Part shown: positions 12,416-39,324 of the stretch, piece by piece
Layout of the letters: each line of letters starts with the position of its first letter
Numbering within the stretch: the stretch's first letter is position 1
Assembly: GCA_031416355.1 (NCBI GenBank)
Contig: JANOTM010000006.1
Location: 1 to 39,324, forward strand
DNA: 39,324 nt
Reading direction: 5' to 3'
DNA from: Gammaproteobacteria bacterium
GTDB taxonomy: Bacteria; Pseudomonadota; Gammaproteobacteria; Acidiferrobacterales; UBA6901
Translations under genes and position numbers: made by a program
The notes under the pieces: generated by a model
Seen by the model: the letters and a program-made list of their open reading frames with translations, nothing else
Database searches by the model: none
Told to the model about the DNA's origin: nothing

Positions 12416-14509
12416 TTAATGCGCTTCTTCCACCACCGCCTTCATGCTAAGACGTATACGTCCCTGCTTGTCCACTTCCAATACTTTCACGGTGACGTTT
12501 TCACCTTCGGTGAGCTTGTCGCTCACATTCTCGACACGTTCGTGCGAGATTTGCGAGATATGCACCAGGCCGTCGCGTCCCGGGAGGATGGTGACGAAGG
12601 CACCGAAATCCATGAGTTTCGCCACGCGGCCCTGATAGATTTTGCCCACCTCGACATCGGCGGTGATCTGCTCGATACGGCGGCGCGCTTCCTGGCCGGC
12701 GGCATTATCGGCCGAGGCCACCTTCACGGTGCCGTCGTCTTCGATATCGATGGTGGCACCGGTTTCTTCGCACAGGGCGCGTATGGTGGCGCCGCCCTTG
12801 CCGATGACGTCGCGTATCTTCTCGGGATTGATCTTGAAGGTAATAATGCGCGGGGCGAATTCCGACATCTCCTCGCGCGGCGTAGCGATGGCGTCATTCA
12901 TGATCTTGAGCAGGTGCAGGCGCGCCTCGCGTGCCTGCTTGAGCGCCACGTCCATGATTTCGCGGTTAATGCCCTCGATCTTGATGTCCATTTGCAACGC
13001 GGTCACGCCTTCAGCAGTGCCGGCAACTTTAAAGTCCATGTCACCCAGGTGATCTTCGTCACCCAGGATGTCGGTCAGCACGGCAAAACCGGTGTCATCC
13101 TTGATGAGGCCCATGGCGATACCCGCCACCGGCGCCTTGATTTTTACGCCCGCGTCCATGAGCGATAAACTGCTGCCGCAGACCGAGGCCATGGAACTGG
13201 AGCCGTTGGATTCGGTGATTTCCGATACCACGCGCAATATATAAGGAAAGGTGCTCATATCCGGCAACACACCGGCCACGGCACGCTTGGCCAGACGCCC
13301 GTGTCCGATTTCACGCCGCTTGGGCGTGCCCACGCGGCCGGTCTCGCCGGTGCACGATGGCGGAAAGTTGTAATGCAGCATAAAGGGTTCTTTGCGCTCG
13401 CCCTCCAGGGCATCGATGATCTGGGCGTCGCGTCCCGTGCCCAGGGTGGTCACCACCAATGCTTGGGTCTCGCCGCGGGTAAATAAGGCCGACCCGTGGG
13501 CGCGCGGCAGCACGCCGGTGCGTATGGTAATGGGCCGTACGGTGCGCGTATCGCGGCCGTCGATGCGCGGCTCGCCCGCCAATATGCGCCCGCGCACCAC
13601 TTTCTTTTCCACGCTCTTGAAGATGTTCTTGACCGCTTCGACCTCGTCGGGGCTGCTGGTCTCGCTGATGTGTGCCGCGAGCACGCGGTCGCGGATCTCC
13701 GCTACCTTGTCCTGACGTGCGAGTTTTTCGCGGATCTGATAGGCGGTCGCCACCTCAGCACCGGCCATCTTGGTGATGGCGGCAATTAAGGTCTCGTTCT
13801 TCGCGGGCGCGGTCCAATCCCACGCCACGACCCCGGCCTCTTTGGCGAGGGCGCGTATGGCGTTGATGGCAACGCGCATTTGTTCGTGGCCGAACAACAC
13901 CGCACCCAGCATGATTTCTTCCGATAGTATCTTGGCTTCCGACTCCACCATCAATACCGCCGCTTCCGTCCCCGCAACGACCAGGTCTAGCTGCGACTCC
14001 GCCATTTGCTGCATGCCGGGATTAAGCACGTAGGCACTGTTGATGTAACCCACGCGCGCCGCACCCACCGGGCCGTTGAACGGCATGCCGGAAAGGCTTA
14101 AGGCGGCGGAGGCGCCGAGCAAGGCGACGATGTCCGGATCGATGTCCGGATCGATGGACATGACCGTGGCGATAATCTGAACTTCGTTGGTGAAACTCTT
14201 GGGAAACAGCGGACGTATGGGGCGATCGATGAGGCGGGAAGTGAGAATTTCCTTTTCCGAAGGGCGGCCTTCGCGCTTGAAAAATCCGCCCGGGATGCGG
14301 CCGGCGGCGTAGGTGCGCTCCTGGTAATCGACCGTCAACGGAAAAAAGTCTTGCCCAGGTTTACTCTCCCTGCGCCCGACCGCGGTGACGTGTACCACGG
14401 TATCGCCCATGCTCGCCATCACGGCACCGCTGGCCTGGCGTGCAATTTCGCCGGTTTCAATTTTTACTGTGTGGCTGCCGTAGGGGAAAGATTTGGTAAC
14501 GATTTTCAA
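12416..14509 (-). CDS. pnp: Polyribonucleotide nucleotidyltransferase (PNPase)
   Basis: 697 aa. Two RNase PH domains plus KH and S1 (…[29 protein letters not shown]…). TTG start, as in E. coli pnp. Confidence 0.97.
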
Positions 14510-14674
14510 GGCTGGTGTCCTCAGTTTCTGCGTTTACACTATCAAGATAGTATTACAAAGTGCGGCCCGGCCGATGCCGGCCCGGCGGCCATGAATAATA
14601 GCGGCTGCTGGTCTTTAGTGATCTTAAATCCAAGACAGAGATACGCCCGGACCAGACGCTGCCGGGATGGAGAT

Positions 14675-14944
14675 TTACTTACGTAACCCGAGACGCGCCA
14701 CCAATCCACGGTAGCGATCTGTGTTCACACGCTTGAGGTAGTCGAGTAGTTTCCGGCGCTTGCTCACCATGCGCAACAGGCCCATACGCGAGTGATGGTC
14801 TTGCTTGTGGGTCTGGAAATGTCCCGATAGGTCTTCGATACGTGCCGACAGCAGGGCGACTTGGACCTCGGGCGAACCGGTGTCGCTTTTACCGGTGGCG
14901 TATTCCTGCATAATCTTGGCCTTCTGCTCCGCTTGGAGGGTCAT
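14675..14944 (-). CDS. rpsO: 30S ribosomal protein S15
   Basis: 89 aa: …[40 protein letters not shown]…. Confidence 0.97.
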
Positions 14945-15016
14945 CTATCTATACCTCAGTATTCGTTCTAGGTTAACCGTTAAGGGGCGCTATTCTAACC
15001 GTCTGCCGCGCCCGCC

Positions 15017-15952
15017 TCAACCGATTTCGTGTCTGCTATCTGCTTGTTTTGCTGGCTGTAGCAGTCGTTTCGGTGCTACCCGCCCATCCAGGAGTATCTC
15101 ACCCAGACCCAGGAACCCACCCTGCCCATCGTAAAGGCGTACTATCCCAGGACCATGGCCATGGGGCGCAGTCACAATTTGCCCCTGGCACAGGTAATAG
15201 GCCGCATTCACACTCAGTTCCACCGCCGGCAAGCGGCCAAGCGCTTGATCTCCTGGAATCAACTGCGCCAAGCGCGCATTTTCCGGCAAATTCTTGAGGG
15301 CCTCCAAGCTGATGGCCTGTTCCAGGACAAATCCCCCCATGGCCAGGCGGCTCAAAGCCGCCACATGGCCTCCGCACCCCAGTACTTCTCCCAAATCATG
15401 GGCAAGACTGCGTATATAGGTCCCCTTGCTACAAGAAACCTCCAGTTCCAAGCGATCGCCACACCAGTCCAGCAGGCGCAGTTCGTGGATGACCACGCGC
15501 CGCGGTGGCCTATCTACTTCTATGCCGGCCCGCGCCAGGGCATACAAACGCTGCCCCCCCTGCTTGATGGCGGAATACAGCGGCGGAATCTGTTGGATTT
15601 CACCGCGGAAGCCTGTCAGCGCTGTCTCTATCGCGGTCCGGGTTACGCTAACCGGTCGCTCCGCCACCACCTCGCCCTCGGCATCATAGGTTGTGGTCGA
15701 CTGGCCCAGCCGGACGGAGGTCCAATAACGCTTGTCCGATTCAAGCAGAAACTGGGAGACCTTGGTGGCTTCACCTAAACACAGAGGTAACAACCCGGTC
15801 GCCAGGGGATCGAGACTGCCAGTGTGTCCGGCCTTGCGTGCCTGAAAGAGGTGCTTGACCTCCTGCAGGGCCCGGTTAGAGGTCAGGCCCGAGGGCTTGT
15901 CCAGCAGCAGGATACCGTGGATATCACGCTTGATACGCGGGGTGCTGGTCAC
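15017..15952 (-). CDS. truB: tRNA pseudouridine-55 synthase
   Basis: GILLLDKPSGLTSN, HTGSLDPLATGLLPLCLGEATK and a PUA-like C-terminus. GTG start, TGA stop. Confidence 0.93.
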   Translation of the reverse strand: MTSTPRIKRDIHGILLLDKPSGLTSNRALQEVKHLFQARKAGHTGSLDPLATGLLPLCLGEATKVSQFLLESDKRYWTSVRLGQSTTTYDAEGEVVAERPVSVTRTAIETALTGFRGEIQQIPPLYSAIKQGGQRLYALARAGIEVDRPPRRVVIHELRLLDWCGDRLELEVSCSKGTYIRSLAHDLGEVLGCGGHVAALSRLAMGGFVLEQAISLEALKNLPENARLAQLIPGDQALGRLPAVELSVNAAYYLCQGQIVTAPHGHGPGIVRLYDGQGGFLGLGEILLDGRVAPKRLLQPAKQADSRHEIG

Positions 15953-16018
15953 AATGATACGCCTAGGCTGCGGTTTATCGGGTACGAACTATATAGTGCC
16001 GCCTAACCGTCGCAGTAT

Positions 16019-16137
16019 GTAGGGTGGGCATCGCCCACCAAACGTGGCTTCGGTCGGCACACCTTGGTGGGCGATTCACTGGAAACTGCTCCTGCGTTTC
16101 CAGTACTTCCGCCATCCATGGCGGTCGCCCACCCTAC
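16019..16137. repeat. REP-type composite palindromic element in the rbfA-truB spacer
   Basis: GTAGGGTGGGCATCGCCCACC (16019-16039) faces GGTCGCCCACCCTAC (16123-16137) in inverted orientation. Inside are the hairpin GGAAAC-n9-GTTTCC and the palindrome CCGCCATCCATGGCGG (16109-16124). Confidence 0.8.
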
Positions 16138-16174
16138 AAACCAGGTGCTATATATATCGCTATGTTTAGCTAGC

Positions 16175-16543
16175 TTACGGTTCATTGTCACGGTCTTGAG
16201 CAAGGGCGCGGTCGATAAGACTAGAAATGGCCGCACCCTTCTCCACGGATTCGTCATACAGAAAACGCAATTGCGGGATGATACGCAGCTTCACCCTATT
16301 CTTAAGTCCATGGCGTAGAAAACCAGCGGCCTTATTGAGTACCTTGAGGGTTTCGGGGGCGTGTTCGATGCCGCTCAGCTGGGTGACATAGACCTTGGCG
16401 TGGGACAAATTCGGCGAAACATCCACCGACGTCAGGGTCAGCTGAACGATGCGGGGATCGTTCAGCTCACGCCGCATAAGCTCCGCCAGTTCGCGCTGGA
16501 GTAATTCGGCGATGCGGCGGGTGCGGCCGGTGTCTTTGGGCAT
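16175..16543 (-). CDS. rbfA: Ribosome-binding factor A
   Basis: 122 aa: RIAELLQRELAELM…DPR…LTLTSVDVSPNLSHAKVYVT. Confidence 0.93.
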   Translation of the reverse strand: MPKDTGRTRRIAELLQRELAELMRRELNDPRIVQLTLTSVDVSPNLSHAKVYVTQLSGIEHAPETLKVLNKAAGFLRHGLKNRVKLRIIPQLRFLYDESVEKGAAISSLIDRALAQDRDNEP

Positions 16544-16563
16544 GGGCTAGGCAAGAACCCCCA

Positions 16564-19056
16564 TTACAAGGTCCGCGCGATCTCAACCTTATCGAAGCAT
16601 TCGAGTTGATCACCCACCTGGATGTCGTTGTAATTTTTAACGCCGATGCCGCATTCGGTCCCGGCCTTGACCTCGTTAACGTCGTCCTTGAAACGGCGCA
16701 GCGAATCGATTTCGCCCTCGAAGATGACGACATTGTCGCGCAGTATGCGTATCGGACGATTGCGCCGCACCACCCCTTCTATCACGTGGCAGCCGGCGAT
16801 GGCGCCGATCTTGGGCGCCTTGAATACCTCGCGCACCTCGGCTAAGCCCACGACCTCTTCCTTGAACTGCGGCTTGAGCATGCCGGTGAGCGCCGCCTTG
16901 ACGTCGTTTACCGCATCATAAATAACGTTGTAGTAATGCACATCCACGCCTTCCGCTGCGATCAGGCGGCGCGCGCCACTGTCGGCGCGCACGTTGAAGC
17001 CGATGACTATCGCCTGCGATGCACGCGCCAGGTTGACGTCGGATTCGCTGATGCCGCCGACCATGCCGTGGATCACCTTGACCCTGACCTCGTCGGTGGA
17101 GAGCTTCTCCAAGGCATCGCTCAAGGCCTCGACCGAGCCTTGCACGTCGGTCTTGATGACCAGGTTAAGAGTCTTGGCCTCGCCTTCCTGCAAGGACTGA
17201 AACACATTGGTAAGTTTCGCCGCGTGCTGGCGCGCGTGTTTAACGTCTTTGAATTTTCCCTGACGGTAGAGCGCGATTTCGCGCGCCTTGCGCTCACTCT
17301 CTACCACCACTACTTCGTCACCGGCATTCGGCACGCCGGACAATCCCTGCACTTCCACCGGGATGCTGGGGCCGGCCTCTTTAATCGAGTGGCCGTTTTC
17401 ATCAAGCATGGCGCGCACGCGTCCGGATTCGCTACCGGCGAGAATGACATCGCCTTTGCGCAAGGTGCCGCGCTGCACCAATACTGAAACCACCGGACCA
17501 CGACCCTTGTCGAGGCGCGCCTCGATCACCAGGCCGCTGGCCATACCGGTGCGCACCGCCTTTAACTCCCGCACTTCCGCCTGGAGCAGGACCGCGTCGA
17601 ACAAGTCGTCGATGCCCAGGCCGGTCTTGGCCGACACATTCACGAACACGTCTTCGCCGCCCCATTCCTCCGGCACCACTTGCTGTGCCACCAGTTCCTG
17701 CTTCACTCGATCCAACTGGGCCTCGGGCTTGTCGATTTTATTCACCGCTACCACGATGGGTACGCCGGCGGTGCGGGCGTGATGTATCGCCTCTATCGTC
17801 TGCGGCATAACGCCGTCATCGGCGGCGACCACCAGGATAACAATGTCCGTGGCCTTGGCGCCGCGCGCGCGCATGGCGGTGAAGGCTTCATGGCCGGGGG
17901 TATCGAGAAAAGTGACCACGCCCTTGGGCGTCTCCACGTGGTAGGCGCCGATATGCTGGGTAATGCCACCGGCTTCGCCGCTGGCGACCTTGGTCTTGCG
18001 GATGTAATCGAGCAATGAAGTCTTGCCATGGTCTACATGGCCCATGACGGTCACTACCGGCGGCCGCGGTTCCGGCTCGCCTTCGGGTTGGCTGCCAACC
18101 GCAGCAGTACCGCCAAGCAAGGCCTCGGGATCGGTCGGCCTGGCCACCTTGGCAACGTGCCCCATTTCCTCCACCACCAGGGTTGCGGTATCGCGGTCTA
18201 TGACCTGATTGATGGTCACCATCATACCCATATTCATTAGGGCGCGGATGACCTCCACGCCCTTGACCGACATCTTCTGCGCCAGCTCGGCGACGCTGAT
18301 GGCCTCGGGCAATAATACATCCCGCACTACCCGTTCGGTCGGCATTTCAAAGGCGTGCTGACCGGACATGCTGGTTTGTACCGCCTTCTTCGACGTGGGC
18401 TTAAGCTTGCGCCGCAGCTTTTTGGCGTCGCTGATGTGCAACTCGGAACGCCCGCGATTCGGGGCTTCACGCCAGTCTCCGCGTTCACTTTTCTCGCCCT
18501 TTTTATGTTTCTCGGGACGGGCAGCGGGCTTCTTGGCGTCCTTGGCAGGAGTTTCCGCGGGTTTAGTTGCGGTGGCGGTCGCTGGCGCAGCGGCGGTGGG
18601 TTTGCCAGTAACGGGTACCGGCGCAACGACCATTGCGACCTCTTCGGCTACGGCCACTGTCTGATCGATATCTTCCTGAAGGTCGGCAACCACTGCATCG
18701 GTCTCAGTGACTGGCTCGGCCGGCTGTTCTTCGGATAGTGTGGCCTCTTCGATGGCGGTGCGTTTGACGAAGGTGCGCTTCTTGCGTACTTCCACCTGTA
18801 CCGTGCGTGCGCTGCCAGTGCGGGAATTCTGCTTGATCTGGCTGACGGATTTCTGCTTGAGGGTGATTTTTTTGGTGCCCGACTCGCCACCACCGTGATG
18901 GGTGCGTAGATAGGTGAGCAGCGTCATCTTCTCATCGTCACTCAGGGAGTCGTCGACCAGTTTCTCGTCGATGCCGGCGGCCACAAGCTGGGTCAGTAGC
19001 TTGTCGGGGGAAATGCCGATCTGAGCGGCGAAACTTTTGATGGTGGCTTCGGACAT
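16564..19056 (-). CDS. infB: Translation initiation factor IF-2
   Basis: GTPase core [25 protein letters not shown] and NKID, plus conserved C-terminal domains. Start placed at the ATG at 19056 (MSEATIKSF…). The ORF track begins 6 codons earlier at a TTG that overlaps the nusA stop. Confidence 0.95.
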
Positions 19057-19070
19057 AGACTCTCTAGTAC

Positions 19071-20567
19071 TCAAACCTCGGGATCTTTAAACCACGGGGC
19101 ACGTGCCGCCATGATCAACTGCTTGGCGCGTTCTTCATCGATACCTTTTACTTCGAGCAACTCGTCGACCGATAGCTCGGCCAGGTCTTCCATGCTCTTG
19201 ATGCCGTGGCTCGCCAGCAGGCGCGCGGTGTGTTCATCCATACCCTCGACTGCGAGCAAATCATCCGCCGGCTCGGCCATGTCGATCTTCTCTTCCAGGG
19301 CGATGGCCTTAGTGAGCAACACATCACGCGCGCGGCTGCGCAGACCCTCCACCAGCTCTTCATCGAAACCCTCGACCGCGAGCATTTCCTGTTTCGGCAC
19401 GTACGCCACTTCGTCGAGGCTGGTAAACCCTTCGTTCACCAGCACGGTGGCGACGATTTCGTCTACGTTCAACTGTTCCATAAACATCTGCAAGGTGGCC
19501 GCCGCCTCGGTCGCACCTTTCTCGCTGGCGGTATCCTCGGTCATGATGTTGAGTTCCCATCCACTCAACTCGGAGGCGAGGCGCACGTTCTGGCCGCCGC
19601 GGCCTATGGCTTGGGACAGCTGGCTAGGGTCCACGATCACGTCCATGCTGTGCAACTCTTCGTCGACCACGATGGATTGCACTTCCGCCGGCGCCAGGGC
19701 GTTGATTACGAACTGCGCCGGCTCCGGCGACCAATTGATAATATCGACGCGCTCGCCGGCCAATTCATTGGACACACTCTGCACGCGCATGCCGCGCATG
19801 CCGACGCACGCACCTATGGGATCGATGCGCGGATCTTTGGAACTCACGGCGGTCTTGGCGCGCAGACCCGGGTCGCGCGCGGCACCGTGTATAGTAATAA
19901 GGCCTTCACCCGCCTCCGGTACTTCGAGCTTGAACAGTTCGATCAAAAGCTGCGGCGCAGTACGGCTGAGAAACAACTGCGGACCGCGCGGCGTGGTATA
20001 GACATCTTCCAGATAGGCGCGGATACGATCGCCCGGGCGCAGGCCTTCGTGCGGGATCATGCCCGATTTGGGCAGCAAGGCCTCGGCCGCGCCCAGGTCC
20101 ACGATAGCGTCACCGCGCTCCATGCGCTTCACCACACCGGTGACCAGCTGGCCCTTGCGCTCCTTAAACTGGCTGACGATCTGCTCGCGTTCCGCCTCGC
20201 GGACTTTTTGTACTATCACCTGCTTGGCGGCCTGGGCGGCGATACGCCCGAACTCTATCGGCTCTAAAGGCTCTTCTATGTATTCGCCTACTTTGGCGTC
20301 GGGGTCCCGTTGCAGGGCCGCGTTCAGGAGTAACTGGCGATCGGGAAATTCAAACTCCTCCGATTCGTCGTCCATGATCTGCCAACGGCGGAAGGTATCG
20401 TAAGCGCCCAGATGACGATCGATGGTGACACGCACGTCGACGTCTTGCTTGTAACGCTTGCGCGTGGCCGTGGCCAAGGCCGCCTCCAACGCCTGGAAGA
20501 TCACTTCCCGTTCCACGCCTTTTTCGCGTGACACCGCATCTACAACCATTAATATTTCGTGACCCAT
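19071..20567 (-). CDS. nusA: Transcription termination/antitermination factor NusA
   Basis: S1, KH1/KH2 and two C-terminal HhH acidic repeats. Start set at [18 protein letters not shown] (20567), so the gene does not overlap rimP, which ends at 20587. Confidence 0.95.
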
Positions 20568-20586
20568 AACGCCCCCAAACGACCCA

Positions 20587-21045
20587 TCATTTGAACTGCG
20601 GTACCAGACGTGCCTTTTCAATATTGCCAAACGGCAGGTCAAAACTTTCTTTGTCCATTTCTAAAATTACCGTGTCGCCTTCCATTCCTACCAGCAAGCC
20701 GGTGAAGTTGCGCCGTCCCAGCACCGGCTGGGATGTTCTAATCTTGACTATCGCCCCGGTATAACGCAGATAATCTTCGCGCTTCACCAGCGGCCGGTCC
20801 AGCCCCGGCGACGACACCTCCAGCGTATAGTGGCCCGCGATGGGATCCTCCACATCGAGTATGGCGCTGACCTGACGGCTGACAGCAACACAGCCATCGA
20901 CCGTCACCCCGTCCGGGCTGTCGATATACACCCTCAGCACCGCGTTCCTACCGCTACCGGCGAACTCCACGTCCACCAGTTCGTACCCCAGGGTCCGAAC
21001 CGCGGGTTCCAGCAGGACGCGCAGGCTAGCCGCACTACCTCGCAT
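20587..21045 (-). CDS. rimP: Ribosome maturation factor RimP
   Basis: 152 aa: LGYELVDVEF…LRVYID…LEVSSPGLDRPL. Confidence 0.92.
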   Translation of the reverse strand: MRGSAASLRVLLEPAVRTLGYELVDVEFAGSGRNAVLRVYIDSPDGVTVDGCVAVSRQVSAILDVEDPIAGHYTLEVSSPGLDRPLVKREDYLRYTGAIVKIRTSQPVLGRRNFTGLLVGMEGDTVILEMDKESFDLPFGNIEKARLVPQFK

Positions 21046-33638: not shown

Positions 33639-35120
33639 TCACAGTTTACTCACCGCTACTTGCTCCAGCAGGTGTTGCACAGAAACATGCATCACATCCA
33701 GGAACGGATAGGGCCATAGGCCCATTACCAATACCGGGACCGCCAACAGTCCCAGCACCAGGGCCTCGCGCGGACTCACATCGGTCAGCTTCTCGACCGC
33801 GGCATTGGCGACCTCGCCGAAAATCACGCGCTTGTACATCCATAAGGTATAGGCAGCGCCGAATATCAACGTCGTAGCGGCGAGCGCGGCATACCAAAAA
33901 TTGACCTGGAACGCACCCAGGATCACCAGAAACTCGCCGACAAAACCGGAGGTGCCCGGCAGCCCGGCATTGGCCATGGCGAATAACATCATGAACGCCG
34001 CGAACACCGGCATGCGATTGGCGACGCCGCCGTAATCGCCGATCATGCGCGAGTGCATGCGGTCGTATAATACACCCACACACAGAAACAACGCGCCGGA
34101 CACGAATCCGTGGGAAATCATTTGCGCGATGCCGCCCTCCACGCCCTGGGCGTTAAACACAAAGAAACCCAGGGTGACGAAACCCATGTGGGCGATGGAC
34201 GAGTAAGCGATGAGTTTTTTCATGTCCTGCTGCACCAGCGCCACCAGCCCGATATAAACAATGGCAATGAGAGACAGGGCAATCATGATCCACGCCAGTT
34301 TATGGCTCGCATCCGGCAGTATCGGCAGACTGAAACGCAGAAAACCGTAGGCCCCCATTTTCAACATAATGGCCGCCAGCACCACGGAACCGCCGGTGGG
34401 TGCCTCCACGTGCGCATCCGGCAGCCACGTATGTACCGGCCACATGGGCACCTTCACCGCAAAGGCCAAGAAGAAAGCGATGAAAATCAGTATCTGCTCG
34501 TTCAGACTGAGCTTCATGGCATGCAGCGCGAGAATATCGAAGCTGTTGCCATTGTGCAGATACATATAGACCAGGGCCACCAGCATCAATACCGAACCCA
34601 GCAGCGTATACAGAAAAAACTTCATGGTGGCGTACACACGGTTCGGCCCGCCCCACACGCCGATAATGACGAACATGGGAATCAGCATCGCCTCCCAGAA
34701 CACATAGAACAGCATGGCATCCAGGGCGGAAAACACGCCTATCATTAGGCCTTCCATGAACAGAAACGCCGCCATGTACTGGGCAACTTTCTGTTGTATC
34801 ACCTGCCAGCCGGCGATGACTACTAGCAAGGTGGTGAAACTGGTCAAGAGGATGAACAGCACCGAGATACCGTCGATACCCAGGCGGTAATGAATATTGA
34901 AGGCGGCTATCCATACGTGCTGCTCTTGGAACTGCATGGCGGCGGTGTGCGCGTTAAACCCGATATACAGCGGCAGCGTGACGATGAACGCCGCCAGGGC
35001 AACGACCAGGCTGATGACTCGGGCACGACCGGCGTAGGCGTCACCGCCGGTGAGCAACACCGCCACCCCGCCGATGATGGGCAGCCAGATGGCCAGACTC
35101 AGTGCATGATCAGCAAACAT
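33639..35120 (-). CDS. nuoM: NADH-quinone oxidoreductase subunit M
   Basis: 493 aa. Has the conserved …WLPDAHVEAPTGGSVVLAAIMLKMG… block. Confidence 0.95.
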   Translation of the reverse strand: MFADHALSLAIWLPIIGGVAVLLTGGDAYAGRARVISLVVALAAFIVTLPLYIGFNAHTAAMQFQEQHVWIAAFNIHYRLGIDGISVLFILLTSFTTLLVVIAGWQVIQQKVAQYMAAFLFMEGLMIGVFSALDAMLFYVFWEAMLIPMFVIIGVWGGPNRVYATMKFFLYTLLGSVLMLVALVYMYLHNGNSFDILALHAMKLSLNEQILIFIAFFLAFAVKVPMWPVHTWLPDAHVEAPTGGSVVLAAIMLKMGAYGFLRFSLPILPDASHKLAWIMIALSLIAIVYIGLVALVQQDMKKLIAYSSIAHMGFVTLGFFVFNAQGVEGGIAQMISHGFVSGALFLCVGVLYDRMHSRMIGDYGGVANRMPVFAAFMMLFAMANAGLPGTSGFVGEFLVILGAFQVNFWYAALAATTLIFGAAYTLWMYKRVIFGEVANAAVEKLTDVSPREALVLGLLAVPVLVMGLWPYPFLDVMHVSVQHLLEQVAVSKL

Positions 35121-35216
35121 GGTTCAAGTCTCGCTTAGAGTCCCTAACAAAATGATCGGAACTGCTGCTAAACATAGCGACATAAATAACGCCGCAAAAC
35201 TGGGGTAGTGATTATT

Positions 35217-35284
35217 GTAGGGTGGGCATCGCCCACCGCAACACGCCAGACTACGCCCCTGATGGTGGGCAATGCCCACCCTAC
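35217..35284. repeat. REP doublet (inverted pair)
   Basis: GTAGGGTGGGCATCGCCCACC (35217-35237) … GGTGGGCAATGCCCACCCTAC (35264-35284). Confidence 0.85.
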
Positions 35285-35301
35285 ATAATCTAGCTCTGGC
35301 C

Positions 35302-35352
35302 CTCGGCAACTGCTCCATGCGTTGCTCTACCTCCTGCATCCATGCAGTCGTC
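35302..35352. repeat. 51-nt module, copy A1
   Basis: CTCGGCAACTGCTCCATGCGTTGCTCTACCTCCTGCATCCATGCAGTCGTC. Confidence 0.85.
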
Positions 35353-35364
35353 ACCCCTACCCCT

Positions 35365-35463
35365 CTCGGCAAATGCTCCCGGCTTTGCTCTACCTCCTCG
35401 GCGGCGGTTCCCGACGCCGCTCTACCTCCTCCATCCCTGGAGTCGTGCATCCATGCAGTCGTC
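35365..35463. repeat. 99-nt long variant of the module, copy A2
   Basis: It has the same first 34 nt and last 17 nt as the 51-nt unit. The internal insert is CGGCGGCGGTTCCCGACGCCGCTCTACCTCCTCCATCCCTGGAGTCGT. It differs from copy A4 at only 5 positions. Confidence 0.85.
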
Positions 35464-35607
35464 CCACGGGAGGCGAGACGGAGCAGTCGCGTATGTTCAG
35501 TGGACATACGCGCCGTCGAGCGGGTGCGCGGAGGTTTGCGCACCCCGGCGGGAATTAGGGATGAGGGCAATGTAGCATGCGGTTTCATTTTTTTAGCGGC
35601 TCTTAGA

Positions 35608-37566
35608 TCAGACGTGGAGGAAAAACGTCATCAGCAGAAACAGGCCGATGATCATGGCAAAGGCATAATGATAGATATAGCCGGATTGGACATGGCGCAC
35701 CGCGGCGGATACCCAGGCCACCACACGCGCCGTGCCGTTCACCATGAGTCCATCGATCAGCCTCACGTCCCCGGTCTTCCACAGTAGGCGGCCGATGGCG
35801 CGCGCACCGCCGGCCAGCACGATGTCGTTAAAGGCATCGAACCCGTACTTATGCATAAGGATGGTGTAGAGCATGTGCGTGCGACCGCGTATGCGTTCCG
35901 GCAGTTGCGGCGAACGAATATACAGCAGCCACGCCAAACCGAAGCCCGCCACCAGCAGCAACATGGGCAAAGACTGTAGTCCATGGGCCAAGAAACGGCC
36001 CATGTGGAAATCCTGGCCCATGACGGCCAGCACATCGTGCTGCGGCAACACCTTTATAGCGTCCTGGAAGAAACCTTTAAATAGCATGGGCTTCATATAA
36101 AACCAGCCGATGAATACCGAGGGTAAGGCCAGCATGACCAGGGGGATGAGCACCACCAACGGTGATTCCTTGAGGTGGTGCTGCGTATGCTCGTCCATGC
36201 GCGGCTTGCCGTAAAACGCCAGAAACAACATGCGGAACGAATAAAACGCGGTCACGAACACGCCCGCGGTCACGGCGACGTAGGCAAACCCGCTGCCGGG
36301 GAGATGCGAATGGTGCACCGCCTCGATGATGGCGTCCTTGGAGAAAAATCCGGAGAACCCGGGAAATCCCACCAGTGCCAAGGTCCCGGCCCAGGCCGTG
36401 AGAAAAGTGACCGGCAGGTATTTTTTCAAGCCGCCCATCTTGCGCAGATCTTGCTCGTGGTGCATGGCCATGATCACCGAGCCGGCCGCGAGGAACAGCA
36501 GCGCCTTAAAAAACGCGTGCGTCATGAGATGGAACATGGCGGCGGCGTAAGCCGAGGCGCCTAGGGCCACGGTCATATAACCCAGTTGCGACAGGGTGGA
36601 ATACGCCACCACGCGCTTGATGTCGTTCTGCACCATGCCAAGAAAGGCCATGGATAGGGCGGTAATGGCGCCTATGACCATCACCACCGACAGGGCGGTC
36701 TCGGACAATTCAAACAGCGGCGACATGCGCGCCACCATGAAGATGCCCGCGGTCACCATGGTGGCCGCGTGGATCAGGGCGGAAATGGGCGTGGGGCCTT
36801 CCATGGAATCCGGCAGCCACACGTGCAACGGCACCTGCGCCGACTTGCCCATGGCGCCGATGAACAGCAGTATGCATATCAAGGACATGACATTCCAAGG
36901 CACACCGGGTATGACCTGAACCGTCTGAGTCGCCAGCTGCGGCGCGATGCTGAACACCGCGGCATAGTCCAGGCTGCCGAAGTGCAAGTAGATCGCGGCG
37001 ATGCCAAGAAGAAATCCGAAATCACCCACGCGGTTGACCAGGAACGCCTTGAGGTTGGCCTTGATCGCGGACGGGCGTGTGTGCCAGAAACCGATCAGTA
37101 GATACGAAACCAGGCCCACCGCCTCCCAACCGAAGAACAACTGCAGAAAGTTGTTGGACATCACCAGCATCAACATGGCGAAGGTAAACAGGGCGATGTA
37201 ACTAAAGAAGCGCTGATAGCCGGGGTCGTCGCGCATATAACCTATGGTATAGATATGCACCATCAGCGACACGAAAGTCACCACCACCATCATCAGGGCG
37301 CTCAAGGGATCGATGAGAAAACCGATCTCCATGGGGATGAGGCCGCTCACGCCCCAGACATATACAGTGCCGTTGAACACATGGCCACGACCCACCACAT
37401 CCTGAAACACCACCAGAGACAGACCGAACGCCACGCTCACACCCAGGATGGCGGCGACGTGCGCGCCGATGCGCCCGATCTTCCAGCCCAACAGGCCGGC
37501 AATGAGCGCGCCCGCTAGGCACGCCAGGGGTATGGCAAGATAGATATTTTGCATGTGGTCGAACAT
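35608..37566 (-). CDS. nuoL: NADH-quinone oxidoreductase subunit L
   Basis: 652 aa. Has …WLPDSMEGPTPISALIHAATMVTAGIFM… and the long C-terminal lateral-helix region. Confidence 0.95.
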   Translation of the reverse strand: MFDHMQNIYLAIPLACLAGALIAGLLGWKIGRIGAHVAAILGVSVAFGLSLVVFQDVVGRGHVFNGTVYVWGVSGLIPMEIGFLIDPLSALMMVVVTFVSLMVHIYTIGYMRDDPGYQRFFSYIALFTFAMLMLVMSNNFLQLFFGWEAVGLVSYLLIGFWHTRPSAIKANLKAFLVNRVGDFGFLLGIAAIYLHFGSLDYAAVFSIAPQLATQTVQVIPGVPWNVMSLICILLFIGAMGKSAQVPLHVWLPDSMEGPTPISALIHAATMVTAGIFMVARMSPLFELSETALSVVMVIGAITALSMAFLGMVQNDIKRVVAYSTLSQLGYMTVALGASAYAAAMFHLMTHAFFKALLFLAAGSVIMAMHHEQDLRKMGGLKKYLPVTFLTAWAGTLALVGFPGFSGFFSKDAIIEAVHHSHLPGSGFAYVAVTAGVFVTAFYSFRMLFLAFYGKPRMDEHTQHHLKESPLVVLIPLVMLALPSVFIGWFYMKPMLFKGFFQDAIKVLPQHDVLAVMGQDFHMGRFLAHGLQSLPMLLLVAGFGLAWLLYIRSPQLPERIRGRTHMLYTILMHKYGFDAFNDIVLAGGARAIGRLLWKTGDVRLIDGLMVNGTARVVAWVSAAVRHVQSGYIYHYAFAMIIGLFLLMTFFLHV

Positions 37567-37568
37567 GG

Positions 37569-37874
37569 TCAGCCTTTCAGGGTATCCAAGTCGTCGACGT
37601 TAATAGTATTGCGGTTGCGGAACAGCACGATCAATATCGCCAGGCCGATGGCGGCCTCGGCCGCGGCCACGGTAAGTATAAAGAATACAAACACCTGTCC
37701 GGCGCTATCCCCGAGATAGCGCGAAAACGCCACGAAGTTCATGTTCACCGCCAGTAGATTCAACTCTATGGCCATGAGCAGGATCACCACGTTCTTGCGA
37801 TTGAGAAAAATCCCCATCATGCTCAGGGCGAATAGGATCGCCCCGAGTATAAGATAATTGGACAGTGGTATCAT
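37569..37874 (-). CDS. nuoK: NADH-quinone oxidoreductase subunit K
   Basis: 101 aa, three TM helices: …[19 protein letters not shown]…[13 protein letters not shown]…. Confidence 0.95.
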
Positions 37875-37930
37875 TTTCTTACCCTAGAGTTCCTAGCAAA
37901 ATGAAAACGCAAATCGCCTTAGCCCTCATC

Positions 37931-37981
37931 CTCGGCAACCGCTCCCGGCGTTGCTCTACCTCCTGCATCCATGCAGTCGTC
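37931..37981. repeat. 51-nt module, copy A3
   Basis: CTCGGCAACCGCTCCCGGCGTTGCTCTACCTCCTGCATCCATGCAGTCGTC. Confidence 0.85.
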
Positions 37982-38077
37982 GGCAACCGCTCCCGGCGTT
38001 GCTCTACCTCCTCGGCGGCGGTTCCCGACGCCGCTCTACCTCCTCCATCCCTGGAGTCGTGCATCCATGCAGTCGTG
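37981..38077. repeat. Long variant of the module, copy A4 (abuts A3)
   Basis: CGGCAACCGCTCCCGGCGTTGCTCTACCTCCTCGGCGGCGGTTCCCGACGCCGCTCTACCTCCTCCATCCCTGGAGTCGTGCATCCATGCAGTCGTG. Confidence 0.85.
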
Positions 38078-38291
38078 TCCTTCTCCCACAGGGCATAGGT
38101 ATCTACACAAGTGACCCGCATACCCAAAATAAACGTCCCTTCTCCCCCACGGGGAGAAGGACAGGATGAGGGGGAGTTGGGTGAAAAACGGCATTTTAAT
38201 ACCCTCACCCTACCCTCCCCCACTGACGTGGGAGAGGGAACCGCTTTGTTAGGCACTCTTAGACCCTCGGCCGCTAAACCATGCATCGTTT

Positions 38292-38897
38292 TCATCCGCC
38301 CTTCTTCTCCGCCGCCATCTTTACCAGGCGCACGCGATCTTCGCGCCGCACGCGTATCTGCTCGGACGGATTCTGGTATTTAGTCTGGCGCCGACGCAAC
38401 GTCAGGACGATGGCCGCGATGATCGCCACCAGCAATATCAGCGCCGCGATTTCAAACGCATACACATATTCGGTATACAACAACCGGCCCAGTTCGCGCG
38501 TGTTGCTGTAACCGGCGGGATGGCTCGGCGGCAACGGCATTTTTTCCAGACCGAAGCGCCCGGCGTTGAGGATAATGATCATCTCCGCCACCATGAGCGC
38601 TGCGACGATGGCGCCTATGGGCAGATAATCGCCGAATCCCTCGCGCAATCGCACCAGGTTGATGTCCAACATCATCACTACAAACAGGAACAGCACCATG
38701 ACCGCGCCCACGTACACCAGCACCAAGGTGATGGCGAGGAATTCCGCCTCCAGCAGCACCCACAGGCCGGCGGCGCTGAAAAACGCCAGCACCAAGAACA
38801 GGGCCGCCTTCACCGGATTGCGTATGGTGATCACCATGGTGGCGGCGAATACCAGTATTCCGGCGAAGATATAGAAAATATATTGTTCAGGTGTCAT
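38292..38897 (-). CDS. nuoJ: NADH-quinone oxidoreductase subunit J
   Basis: 201 aa: MTPEQYIFYIFAGILVFAATMVITIRNPV…LEAEFLAITLVLVYVGAVMVLFLFVVMML. Confidence 0.93.
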   Translation of the reverse strand: MTPEQYIFYIFAGILVFAATMVITIRNPVKAALFLVLAFFSAAGLWVLLEAEFLAITLVLVYVGAVMVLFLFVVMMLDINLVRLREGFGDYLPIGAIVAALMVAEMIIILNAGRFGLEKMPLPPSHPAGYSNTRELGRLLYTEYVYAFEIAALILLVAIIAAIVLTLRRRQTKYQNPSEQIRVRREDRVRLVKMAAEKKGG

Positions 38898-38941
38898 GGC
38901 TCTACCCAGGAACCCGGCCTAAGGCCGCACGAACTCTCCTT

Positions 38942-38992
38942 CTCGGCAAATGCTCCCGGCTTTGCTCTACCTCCTGCATCCATGCAGTCGTC
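38942..38992. repeat. 51-nt module, copy A5
   Basis: CTCGGCAAATGCTCCCGGCTTTGCTCTACCTCCTGCATCCATGCAGTCGTC. Confidence 0.85.
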
Positions 38993-39186
38993 CCGCGTGC
39001 GGGAGAAGGTGGCCCACAGGGCCGGATGAGGGAAGAGACCGCACGGTTCCGGGGTACAATTCGCGACCATGGCGGGTCGTGCGGTCTCTCCCGCGTGCGG
39101 GAGAAGGTGGCCCGCAGGGCCGGATGAGGGAAGCGACCGCCCGCTCCCGGAACCCACCGTAATTAGGTGGGTCGGGCGGTCTCTCG
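38991..39186. repeat. Two tandem copies of a 98-nt structured unit in the nuoI-nuoJ spacer
   Basis: Both copies start TCCCGCGTGCGGGAGAAGGTGGCCC(A/G)CAGGGCCGGATGAGGGAAG (38991 and 39089). Each ends in a long hairpin: AGAGACCGCACG…CGTGCGGTCTCT (39034-39045 / 39078-39089) and AGCGACCGCCCG…CGGGCGGTCTCT (39132-39143 / 39173-39184). Confidence 0.85.
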
Positions 39187-39231
39187 CACTCGTCAAAGGC
39201 ATGGTATCCATCAGTCTATCCACAGTGGTTA

Positions 39232-39324
39232 TCAACGGTAACGCGCGTCCTGCGCGCGGTCGGCTGCAATCTGTTTTTCATGTTGGTCGCCCACCGCCAG
39301 CAGCATGGACTTGCTGTAATTGAG
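39232..39324 (-). CDS. nuoI: NADH-quinone oxidoreductase subunit I, C-terminal 30 codons (gene continues off the right edge)
   Basis: Own minus-strand translation gives LNYSKSMLLAVGDQHEKQIAADRAQDARYR*. This matches the usual NuoI tail (…Y.K..LL..GD..E..IA…DA.YR). TGA at 39232-39234. Confidence 0.7.
   Translation of the reverse strand, partial: LNYSKSMLLAVGDQHEKQIAADRAQDARYR

Follow-up and report, generated by a model that had tools for sequence, protein, structure and literature searches.

Three spacers of the respiratory complex I (nuo) operon of a gammaproteobacterium of the Acidiferrobacterales (GenBank assembly GCA_031416355.1) are expanded, and each is crossed by an open reading frame (ORF) on the strand of the operon, which raises the question of whether these frames exist so that ribosomes can travel through the inserts or are incidental to the DNA that fills them. 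The operon lies on the minus strand at the right end of our window, the whole 39,324-nt stretch of contig JANOTM010000006.1 that was analyzed, where it comprises the 3' end of nuoI followed by nuoJ, nuoK, nuoL, nuoM, and nuoN. The expanded gaps measure 335 nt (nuoI-nuoJ, 38898-39232), 417 nt (nuoJ-nuoK, 37875-38291), and 487 nt (nuoL-nuoM, 35121-35607). The assembly holds 2.83 Mb in 419 contigs; among named relatives, uncultured Acidiferrobacterales come closest to it. We propose, with a probability of about 0.6, that the bridging frames are by-products of stop-poor mobile repeats that recently settled in the three nuo spacers.

The original prediction, which was made from the DNA letters alone, placed three minus-strand ORFs across the three expanded gaps, and reading the junctions base by base confirmed all of them to the base (Table 1). 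The nuoI-nuoJ ORF opens with a TTG (39235-39233) that overlaps the nuoI TGA (39234-39232) in the sequence GTTGA, and it closes with a TGA (38896-38894) that overlaps the nuoJ ATG (38897-38895) in an ATGA. The same tetranucleotide joins the nuoJ TGA (38294-38292) to the ATG of the nuoJ-nuoK ORF (38295-38293), whose TAA (37881-37879) is followed by 4 nt and then by the nuoK ATG at 37874. The ATG of the nuoL-nuoM ORF, at 35588, is located 19 nt past the nuoL TGA (35610-35608), lacks a Shine-Dalgarno sequence, and sits within the terminal repeat of a mobile element described below. Its TGA (35126-35124) and the nuoM ATG at 35120 are separated by 3 nt; this ORF is in phase with nuoM, with a stop between them. 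In each gap, one sense frame is free of internal stops, and the remaining two sense and three antisense frames carry 1-10 stops each. The claim of an unbroken chain of frames from nuoI to nuoN was correct as well, the remaining nuoK-nuoL and nuoM-nuoN links being only 2 and 32 nt long.

Comparison with related genomes shows that the three expansions are specific to this lineage, because same-genus genomes have only ~20-70 nt at those sites. In ~80 related genomes, the nuoJ-nuoK spacer mostly measures from -4 to ~50 nt and the nuoL-nuoM spacer ~20 nt; in same-genus genomes, these spacers are ~57-70 nt and 22 nt, respectively, and the inserts are absent. One same-genus locus (L092) has an empty nuoL-nuoM site in the form of an uninterrupted 22-nt spacer, GCTTAAGGACGACACCTGAACC. 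Its layout is TGA-GCTTAAGGACGACACC-TGAACC-ATG, and the corresponding layout in this genome is TGA-TC-TAA-[element]-TAA-GCGAGACT-TGAACC-ATG. The stops that end the bridging ORFs are ancestral and are also found in the same-genus relative: the TGA of the nuoL-nuoM ORF is that of the TGAACCATG before nuoM, which the empty site has too, and the ATGA at nuoJ is likewise present there. Moreover, the sequence directly 5' of each start codon is kept in its ancestral form when compared with the same-genus locus. The inserted DNA is repetitive, with nearly all positions of the three gaps having 5-130 copies elsewhere in the genome; short repeats with at least five copies make up 2.4% of the assembly. 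Metagenome contigs scanned with NuoK gave nothing above 85% identity, and a further strain sharing these inserts was not among them.

The nuoJ-nuoK and nuoL-nuoM inserts are MITEs (miniature inverted-repeat transposable elements) of one family that landed on a TNA target within the short ancestral spacer between stop codon and Shine-Dalgarno sequence. Both have 18-bp inverted repeats with the consensus GAG[CT]NCCTAACAAAATGA at their two ends and encode no transposase; a TAA/TTA target duplication is present at the nuoL-nuoM copy, which occupies all but ~20 nt of its gap and is matched by the empty site in the relative. The terminus occurs ~75 times in the genome and bounds 10-15 elements as a pair; these measure 120-465 nt and are flanked by TAA/TTA, the duplication being perfect in ~6 of 13 complete pairs. 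Beyond the two nuo inserts, ~13 further pairs have it at both ends. Other repeats, nested within the elements, make the internal content of the family variable across this range of lengths (120-465 nt). The backbones of the nuoJ-nuoK and nuoL-nuoM copies lie in opposite orientations relative to nuo, whereas the A-module arrays that they carry have the same orientation. We found no pair of termini 500-4000 nt apart that could mark a parent insertion sequence (IS) in the 419-contig assembly, a weak negative given that the assembly breaks at repeats. When read inward, two frames of the terminus, (C)TAACAAAATGA, meet TAA and TGA, and the third has an ATG (35589-35606, and likewise in all termini). 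Each MITE end thus has a built-in start codon. The TNA target lies within CTNAG/TTAAG, which is similar to the stop-plus-Shine-Dalgarno sequence found in operon spacers, a likeness that may explain why these elements land between operon genes.

The nuoI-nuoJ insert lacks MITE termini. It is an array of modules of the repetitive extragenic palindromic (REP) type, made up of a 98-nt module in tandem and a single A module. Modules of this kind include a GTAG-tagged REP, TGTAGGGTGGGCA..GCCCACC, with 129 genome copies, and the A and A' modules, with 35-43 genome copies, which show GTAG plus a hairpin with compensatory differences. They are thus high-copy, GTAG-tagged, GC-rich palindromes, and they include an inverted doublet of the kind known as a REPIN (a REP doublet forming a hairpin). 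The 51-nt module is stop-free in five of its six frames, and its periods, 48 and 51 nt, are both multiples of three. It is not read in one frame throughout: as the original prediction had it, and as the translations confirm, its frame in the nuoI-nuoJ ORF, which gives RDDCMDAGGRAKPG, differs from that in the nuoJ-nuoK and nuoL-nuoM ORFs, which gives TTAWMQEVEQR.

Under the by-product explanation, recent and lineage-specific insertions of non-autonomous mobile repeats would have produced the three expanded spacers, with MITEs bounded by terminal inverted repeats (TIRs) and carrying nested GTAG-tagged REP/REPIN modules in the nuoJ-nuoK and nuoL-nuoM gaps and a related REP-type module array in the nuoI-nuoJ gap. 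The modules, being intrinsically stop-poor and having periods that are multiples of three, would leave frames open, and the ATG within the MITE terminus would supply the start of the nuoL-nuoM ORF. Because the inserts fill nearly the whole spacer, an open frame must begin by the upstream stop and end in the stop-rich region that precedes the next start codon. Likewise, because the terminus stops two of the three inward frames, the sole frame that enters the element has its ATG ~19 nt from the upstream stop. The apparent coupling geometry would therefore arise from where and how the elements insert. The operon would tolerate them because the inserts have left its start codons and ancestral ribosome-binding regions undamaged. 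A foldback via the paired termini of the nuoJ-nuoK and nuoL-nuoM inserts would also bring the upstream stop and the downstream start close together, and structured insert RNA would leave Rho little unstructured RNA for loading.

Table 1. Features of the expanded nuo spacers and a control spacer (window coordinates)
Feature	Position	Strand	Details
ORF across nuoI-nuoJ spacer	38894..39235	-	113 codons; TTG start, TGA stop
ORF across nuoJ-nuoK spacer	37879..38295	-	138 codons; ATG start, TAA stop
ORF across nuoL-nuoM spacer	35124..35588	-	154 codons; ATG start, TGA stop
MITE in nuoL-nuoM spacer	35138..35602	.	465 nt between termini GAG..CCTAACAAAATGA; 3-bp TTA/TAA duplication
Same-family MITE in nuoJ-nuoK spacer	37887..38258	.	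372 nt
REPIN-like inverted doublet of GTAG-tagged REP	35216..35285	.	TGTAGGGTGGGCA..GCCCACC; 22-nt arms 95% complementary; nested in nuoL-nuoM MITE
51-nt A/A' module array, nuoL-nuoM insert	35291..35462	-	small hairpin + GGAGGTAGAGC + REP-like hairpin
A/A' module array, nuoJ-nuoK insert	37920..38076	-	97% identity over 97 nt to nuoL-nuoM array; same frame
Single A module, nuoI-nuoJ spacer	38931..38992	-	frame differs from nuoJ-nuoK and nuoL-nuoM ORFs
Tandem 98-nt B modules, nuoI-nuoJ spacer	38991..39186	-	copies 92% identical; family dispersed in genome
Terminator-like hairpin, middle of nuoJ-nuoK insert	38137..38161	- (sense)	11-bp stem then ACGTTTATTTT (T-rich tail); pattern match only
Control: rbfA-truB spacer, nusA-infB operon	15953..16174	-	222 nt; same REP family; no single bridging sense ORF

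The original prediction had offered the idea that only inserts through which ribosomes can pass are tolerated in this operon, and that idea fails most of the tests applied to it. Copies of the modules elsewhere in the genome are stop-free in the frame of the nuo ORFs in 373 of 452 matches, which largely bears out the outcome that had been named as refuting it, namely that copies elsewhere are equally open; among the longer matches, indels break the frame, with 16 of 33 open and 20 of 33 having indels not divisible by three. Openness is a property of the modules, and the openness of whole arrays is not conserved. Genome-wide, with genes called by a simple codon-usage ORF finder and gap boundaries outside nuo therefore approximate, co-directional repeat-filled gaps were bridged in sense in 25 of 88 cases and in antisense in 24 of 88 (31/80 and 26/80, respectively, in a second tally). 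The modules showed no orientation bias relative to flanking genes when tested genome-wide. Moreover, inserts of the same families interrupt conserved operons with no bridging frame, as found between hisB and hisH (378 nt), between the genes for a DUF1989 protein and urea carboxylase (336 nt), between folC and a SPOR gene (419 nt), and in the rbfA-truB control. Bridged gaps also occur between functionally unrelated genes (gltD-hemE and leuA-udg, as judged by eye from the neighboring proteins). A similar picture came from ~170 related nuo loci, where of the spacers measuring at least 70 nt, 30 of 49 were bridged in sense and 36 of 49 in antisense, and unbridged nuo spacers of up to 216 nt occur in relatives. 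Together, these results do not support selection for a ribosome relay as a general rule.

How improbable three sense bridges are depends on the null against which they are set. In dinucleotide shuffles, with a sense frame at least 95% open as the criterion, bridging had a P of 0.139 for the nuoI-nuoJ gap, 0.0099 for nuoJ-nuoK, and 0.0052 for nuoL-nuoM. This simulation, which had been suggested as a check, bears out the earlier view that plain composition is insufficient for bridging. Shuffles are the wrong null for repeats, and we used the genome's own repeat-filled gaps instead, defining bridging as a frame with no internal stop, allowing 30-nt pads at the ends, and keeping frames in phase with the downstream gene, because the nuoL-nuoM ORF is itself in phase with nuoM yet separated from it by a stop. 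Among repeat-rich intergenic gaps, nuo excluded, the per-strand chance of an open frame fell with gap length, with fitted values of ~0.16-0.27 for a gap of 335 nt, ~0.06-0.14 for one of 417 nt, and ~0.02-0.08 for one of 487 nt. The corresponding length-matched counts of open strands were 14/68, 5/56, and 2/38, and the per-strand rates can be summarized as ~0.2, ~0.1, and ~0.08.

Several of the observations made at nuo weigh against the by-product explanation. All three expanded gaps are bridged in sense and none of the three in antisense. From length-matched gaps, the joint P of three sense bridges is ~0.0017-0.0039, a post-hoc figure; logistic fits gave 4e-4 to 3e-3, and another fit gave 1.9e-4. 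For three independent bridges the joint P is thus put at ~4e-4 to 4e-3, which is somewhat larger in reality because the nuoJ-nuoK and nuoL-nuoM inserts share an array of ~150 nt in the same frame. The triple sense coincidence is therefore real and uncommon, at ~2-4 in 1000, and it is not overwhelming. In addition, the 487-nt nuoL-nuoM gap is the sole co-directional repeat-rich gap longer than 420-450 nt in the genome to be bridged in sense (0/9 and 0/8 of the others in two tallies), and both MITEs are open on the nuo sense strand in spite of their opposite backbones. These points favor a rival explanation modeled on mycobacterial interspersed repetitive units (MIRUs), in which nuo, a long operon for a multi-subunit membrane complex, retains only inserts with a through-reading sense frame. 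Ribosomes would re-initiate on the bridging ORF, melt the hairpins of the insert, deny Rho a site for loading, and so reach the next start; the overlaps GTTGA, ATGA, and ATGA and the distances of 3-4 nt fit known re-initiation geometry. The terminator-like hairpin in the middle of the nuoJ-nuoK insert would plausibly be neutralized if ribosomes translated through it, and no other single argument speaks as well for a benefit of translation. We nevertheless consider this rival unlikely, in view of the missing sense bias both genome-wide and in the nuo operons of relatives, the unbridged inserts tolerated in four other operons, and the openness that belongs to the module families. The nuoI-nuoJ ORF, moreover, starts at a TTG and the nuoL-nuoM ORF at an ATG without a Shine-Dalgarno sequence and 19 nt from the stop, the inserts are young and have had little time for purifying selection, and the shared array means that the three events are not independent.

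A different way of accounting for tolerance would leave the ORFs irrelevant. If the paired MITE termini make each insert a single foldback, the upstream stop and the downstream ribosome-binding site would be spatially close, within a few nucleotides of each other, the transcript would be too structured for Rho, and coupling or independent initiation would continue with no translation of the insert. In predictions for naked RNA, the nuoL-nuoM insert folds at -219 kcal/mol (z -5.1) and the nuoJ-nuoK insert at -184.5 kcal/mol (z -4.8), with the termini paired at the base of both folds. The retention of the ancestral sequence before the nuoM start, the unbridged inserts of the same families in other operons, and the long, stable RNA stem-loops known from MITEs, among them Chunjie, which is reported to sit in an operon without disturbing it (PMC3184786), would agree with such a role for structure. 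The nuoI-nuoJ insert, however, has no such termini, and its fold signal is weak (z -1.5); the predicted folds are those of naked RNA, and foldback would leave the sense openness of all three gaps unexplained. We regard this account as improbable. Far less credible still is the proposal that the ORFs encode genuine small proteins, such as accessory subunits or peptides of complex I. Their length, sense orientation, and position inside the operon would suit such proteins, as would an ILLGTL motif, encoded by the MITE terminus, in the C-terminal part of both the nuoJ-nuoK and nuoL-nuoM products. None of the three products, however, matched a Pfam family, and a search of the nuoL-nuoM product against 5.8 billion proteins returned only partial module matches with 19-47% query coverage, which are other repeat-encoded frames, and no full-length homologue. 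The coding log-likelihood per codon of the bridging ORFs was -0.09 to -0.15 (-0.09 for the nuoI-nuoJ ORF), whereas the genes of this genome scored +0.13 to +0.32 (5th to 75th percentile), with values of +0.35 to +0.42 for those of the nuo operon. Since the ORFs are also absent from same-genus nuo operons, consist almost wholly of multi-copy repeat DNA, and translate one module in two different frames, they are not genes. The earlier interpretation thus holds for the non-protein character of the products, for the module read in two frames, and for the insufficiency of composition, and its tolerance idea is unsupported as a rule.

If the bridging frames are by-products, as we favor, this locus offers a clean and datable case of mobile repeats colonizing the spacers of an essential respiratory operon, for which a sister species supplies the empty site and the TNA target is defined. 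It would also serve as a warning that gene callers will list frames of this sort as hypothetical proteins. Should the frames be selected instead, translating meaningless sequence would be what mobile DNA pays to enter tightly coupled operons, an idea so far proposed mainly for mycobacterial MIRUs, and nuo would provide a test system with three sites. The specific form of that idea, in which the nuo operon filters MITE/REP composites of 335-487 nt so that they persist only with a sense frame open from stop to start and ribosomes relaying across, seems doubtful to us; were it true, it would extend the MIRU principle of the "translationally transparent" insert from units of ~50-100 bp to half-kilobase mosaics in a gammaproteobacterium.

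Further observations concern the repeats themselves. The 51-nt A module, ACGACTGCATGGATGCAGGAGGTAGAGCAACGCCGGGAGCGGTTGCCGA, is found at 35302-35352, 37925-38029, and 38942-38992 and at loci L085-L090 among others, and it occurs at 92-98% identity in many genomes belonging to several other families of the same order, a degree of conservation that is unusually strong for a short dispersed repeat. About half of the copies are located at contig edges (17 of 35 for A and 21 of 43 for A'); the A/A' repeats are a main cause of assembly fragmentation, and their real copy numbers are probably higher. The IS200/RAYT-type transposase domain Y1_Tnp (RAYT, REP-associated tyrosine transposase) gave five matches over the Pfam cut-off genome-wide, with homologues on contigs C47, C166 (two copies), C343, C104, C309, and C252. 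The match on C309 is weak and falls below the cut-off, and it is flanked on both sides by the GTAG-tagged GTAGGGTGGGC REP. None of the Y1_Tnp matches of this assembly could be connected as a RAYT with the 51-nt A module. A scan of positions 34900-39324 with Rfam returned only chance-level matches to miRNAs and snoRNAs. On contig C411 (778-1089), a repeat-filled gap of 312 nt separates two ORFs that resemble the N- and C-terminal parts of a CbiG-type protein of cobalamin biosynthesis, whose gene may have been split by a repeat insertion.

Related genomes hold insertions of other kinds between nuo genes. Kilobase insertions, which presumably bear genes, are present between nuoI and nuoJ at loci L001 and L095 (1617 nt) and between nuoK and nuoL at L117 (3079 nt), and the nuo operon in relatives evidently tolerates large interruptions. 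Another type of insert in the nuo spacers of related Acidiferrobacterales is built of hairpins of GCAAAGA-type heptamer words and occurs in a nuoM-nuoN spacer (L003:4517-5009) and in nuoJ-nuoK spacers (L001:5565-5677 and L003:623-750). One of the inserts at L003 encloses an ORF of ~125 aa resembling a GxxExxY / IVS-type small gene; the nuoJ-nuoK copy at L003, which has no ORF, contains stops in all three sense frames. The rimP-nusA-infB-rbfA-truB-rpsO-pnp cluster (window 12416-21045, minus strand) directly follows nuoN in relatives, and here ~11 kb of accessory genes lie between nuoN and this cluster.

Judged by sequence features, the elements in the nuo spacers are MITEs with nested REP/REPIN modules, all of them of known kinds (PMC3733652, PMC3116915, PMC3184786). 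REPs, bacterial interspersed mosaic elements (BIMEs), and REPINs, GTAG-tagged palindromic repeats associated with RAYT (Y1) transposases, are established classes (PMC3733652, PMC3116915, PMC2817692). The nuo modules resemble them in being GTAG-tagged, GC-rich hairpins of 20-40 nt with 35-130 copies, in forming inverted doublets, and in building intergenic mosaic arrays that include operon spacers; the genome also has several Y1_Tnp genes, with the one weak, sub-cut-off match being REP-flanked. They differ in being nested inside TIR-bounded MITEs, and the 51-nt module differs further in having another small hairpin as well as a GGAGG core and in being conserved at 92-98% across families of the order. 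To our knowledge, classical REP arrays have not been noted for through-reading ORFs.

Bacterial MITEs that occupy operons include Chunjie, from Geobacter uraniireducens, and the cyanobacterial Nezha (both cited in PMC3184786). The nuo MITEs share with these elements their terminal inverted repeats, short target duplication, lack of a transposase, and long RNA foldback; in both, a close relative shows the empty site, and the element sits between operon genes with the operon unbroken. Unlike them, the nuo MITEs have a highly variable interior (120-465 nt), and no parent IS was found in this fragmented assembly.

The closest parallel in layout is with MIRUs, which a review of translational coupling (PMC12548453) gives as a natural case of a process that is most efficient at small distances. 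According to Supply et al. (1997), as related in that review and in PMC3184786, the ORF of a MIRU is coupled to the flanking gene, which is thought to render the insertion harmless; MIRUs are described there as transcribed with the flanking genes, with translational coupling proposed to keep downstream disturbance minimal. Like MIRUs, the nuo inserts are intergenic operon repeats with a sense ORF that overlaps or adjoins the neighboring stop and start codons at its two ends (GTTGA and ATGA at nuoI-nuoJ, ATGA and 4 nt at nuoJ-nuoK, 19 nt and 3 nt at nuoL-nuoM). MIRUs, however, are units of 40-100 bp at start codons with a coupled ORF throughout the family, whereas the nuo inserts are composites of unrelated modules, 335-487 nt long. 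Their families show no genome-wide preference for sense frames (25/88 vs 24/88) or for orientation and have unbridged copies in operons, and the MIRU-like geometry is seen at the three nuo copies only. A last point of reference is provided by the Rickettsia palindromic elements and other repeats that form in-frame fusions with genes (Ogata et al. 2000, as cited in PMC3184786). Both are mobile palindromic repeats open for translation, but the Rickettsia elements lie inside genes and form part of the protein, whereas the frames described here would be separate cistrons between genes.

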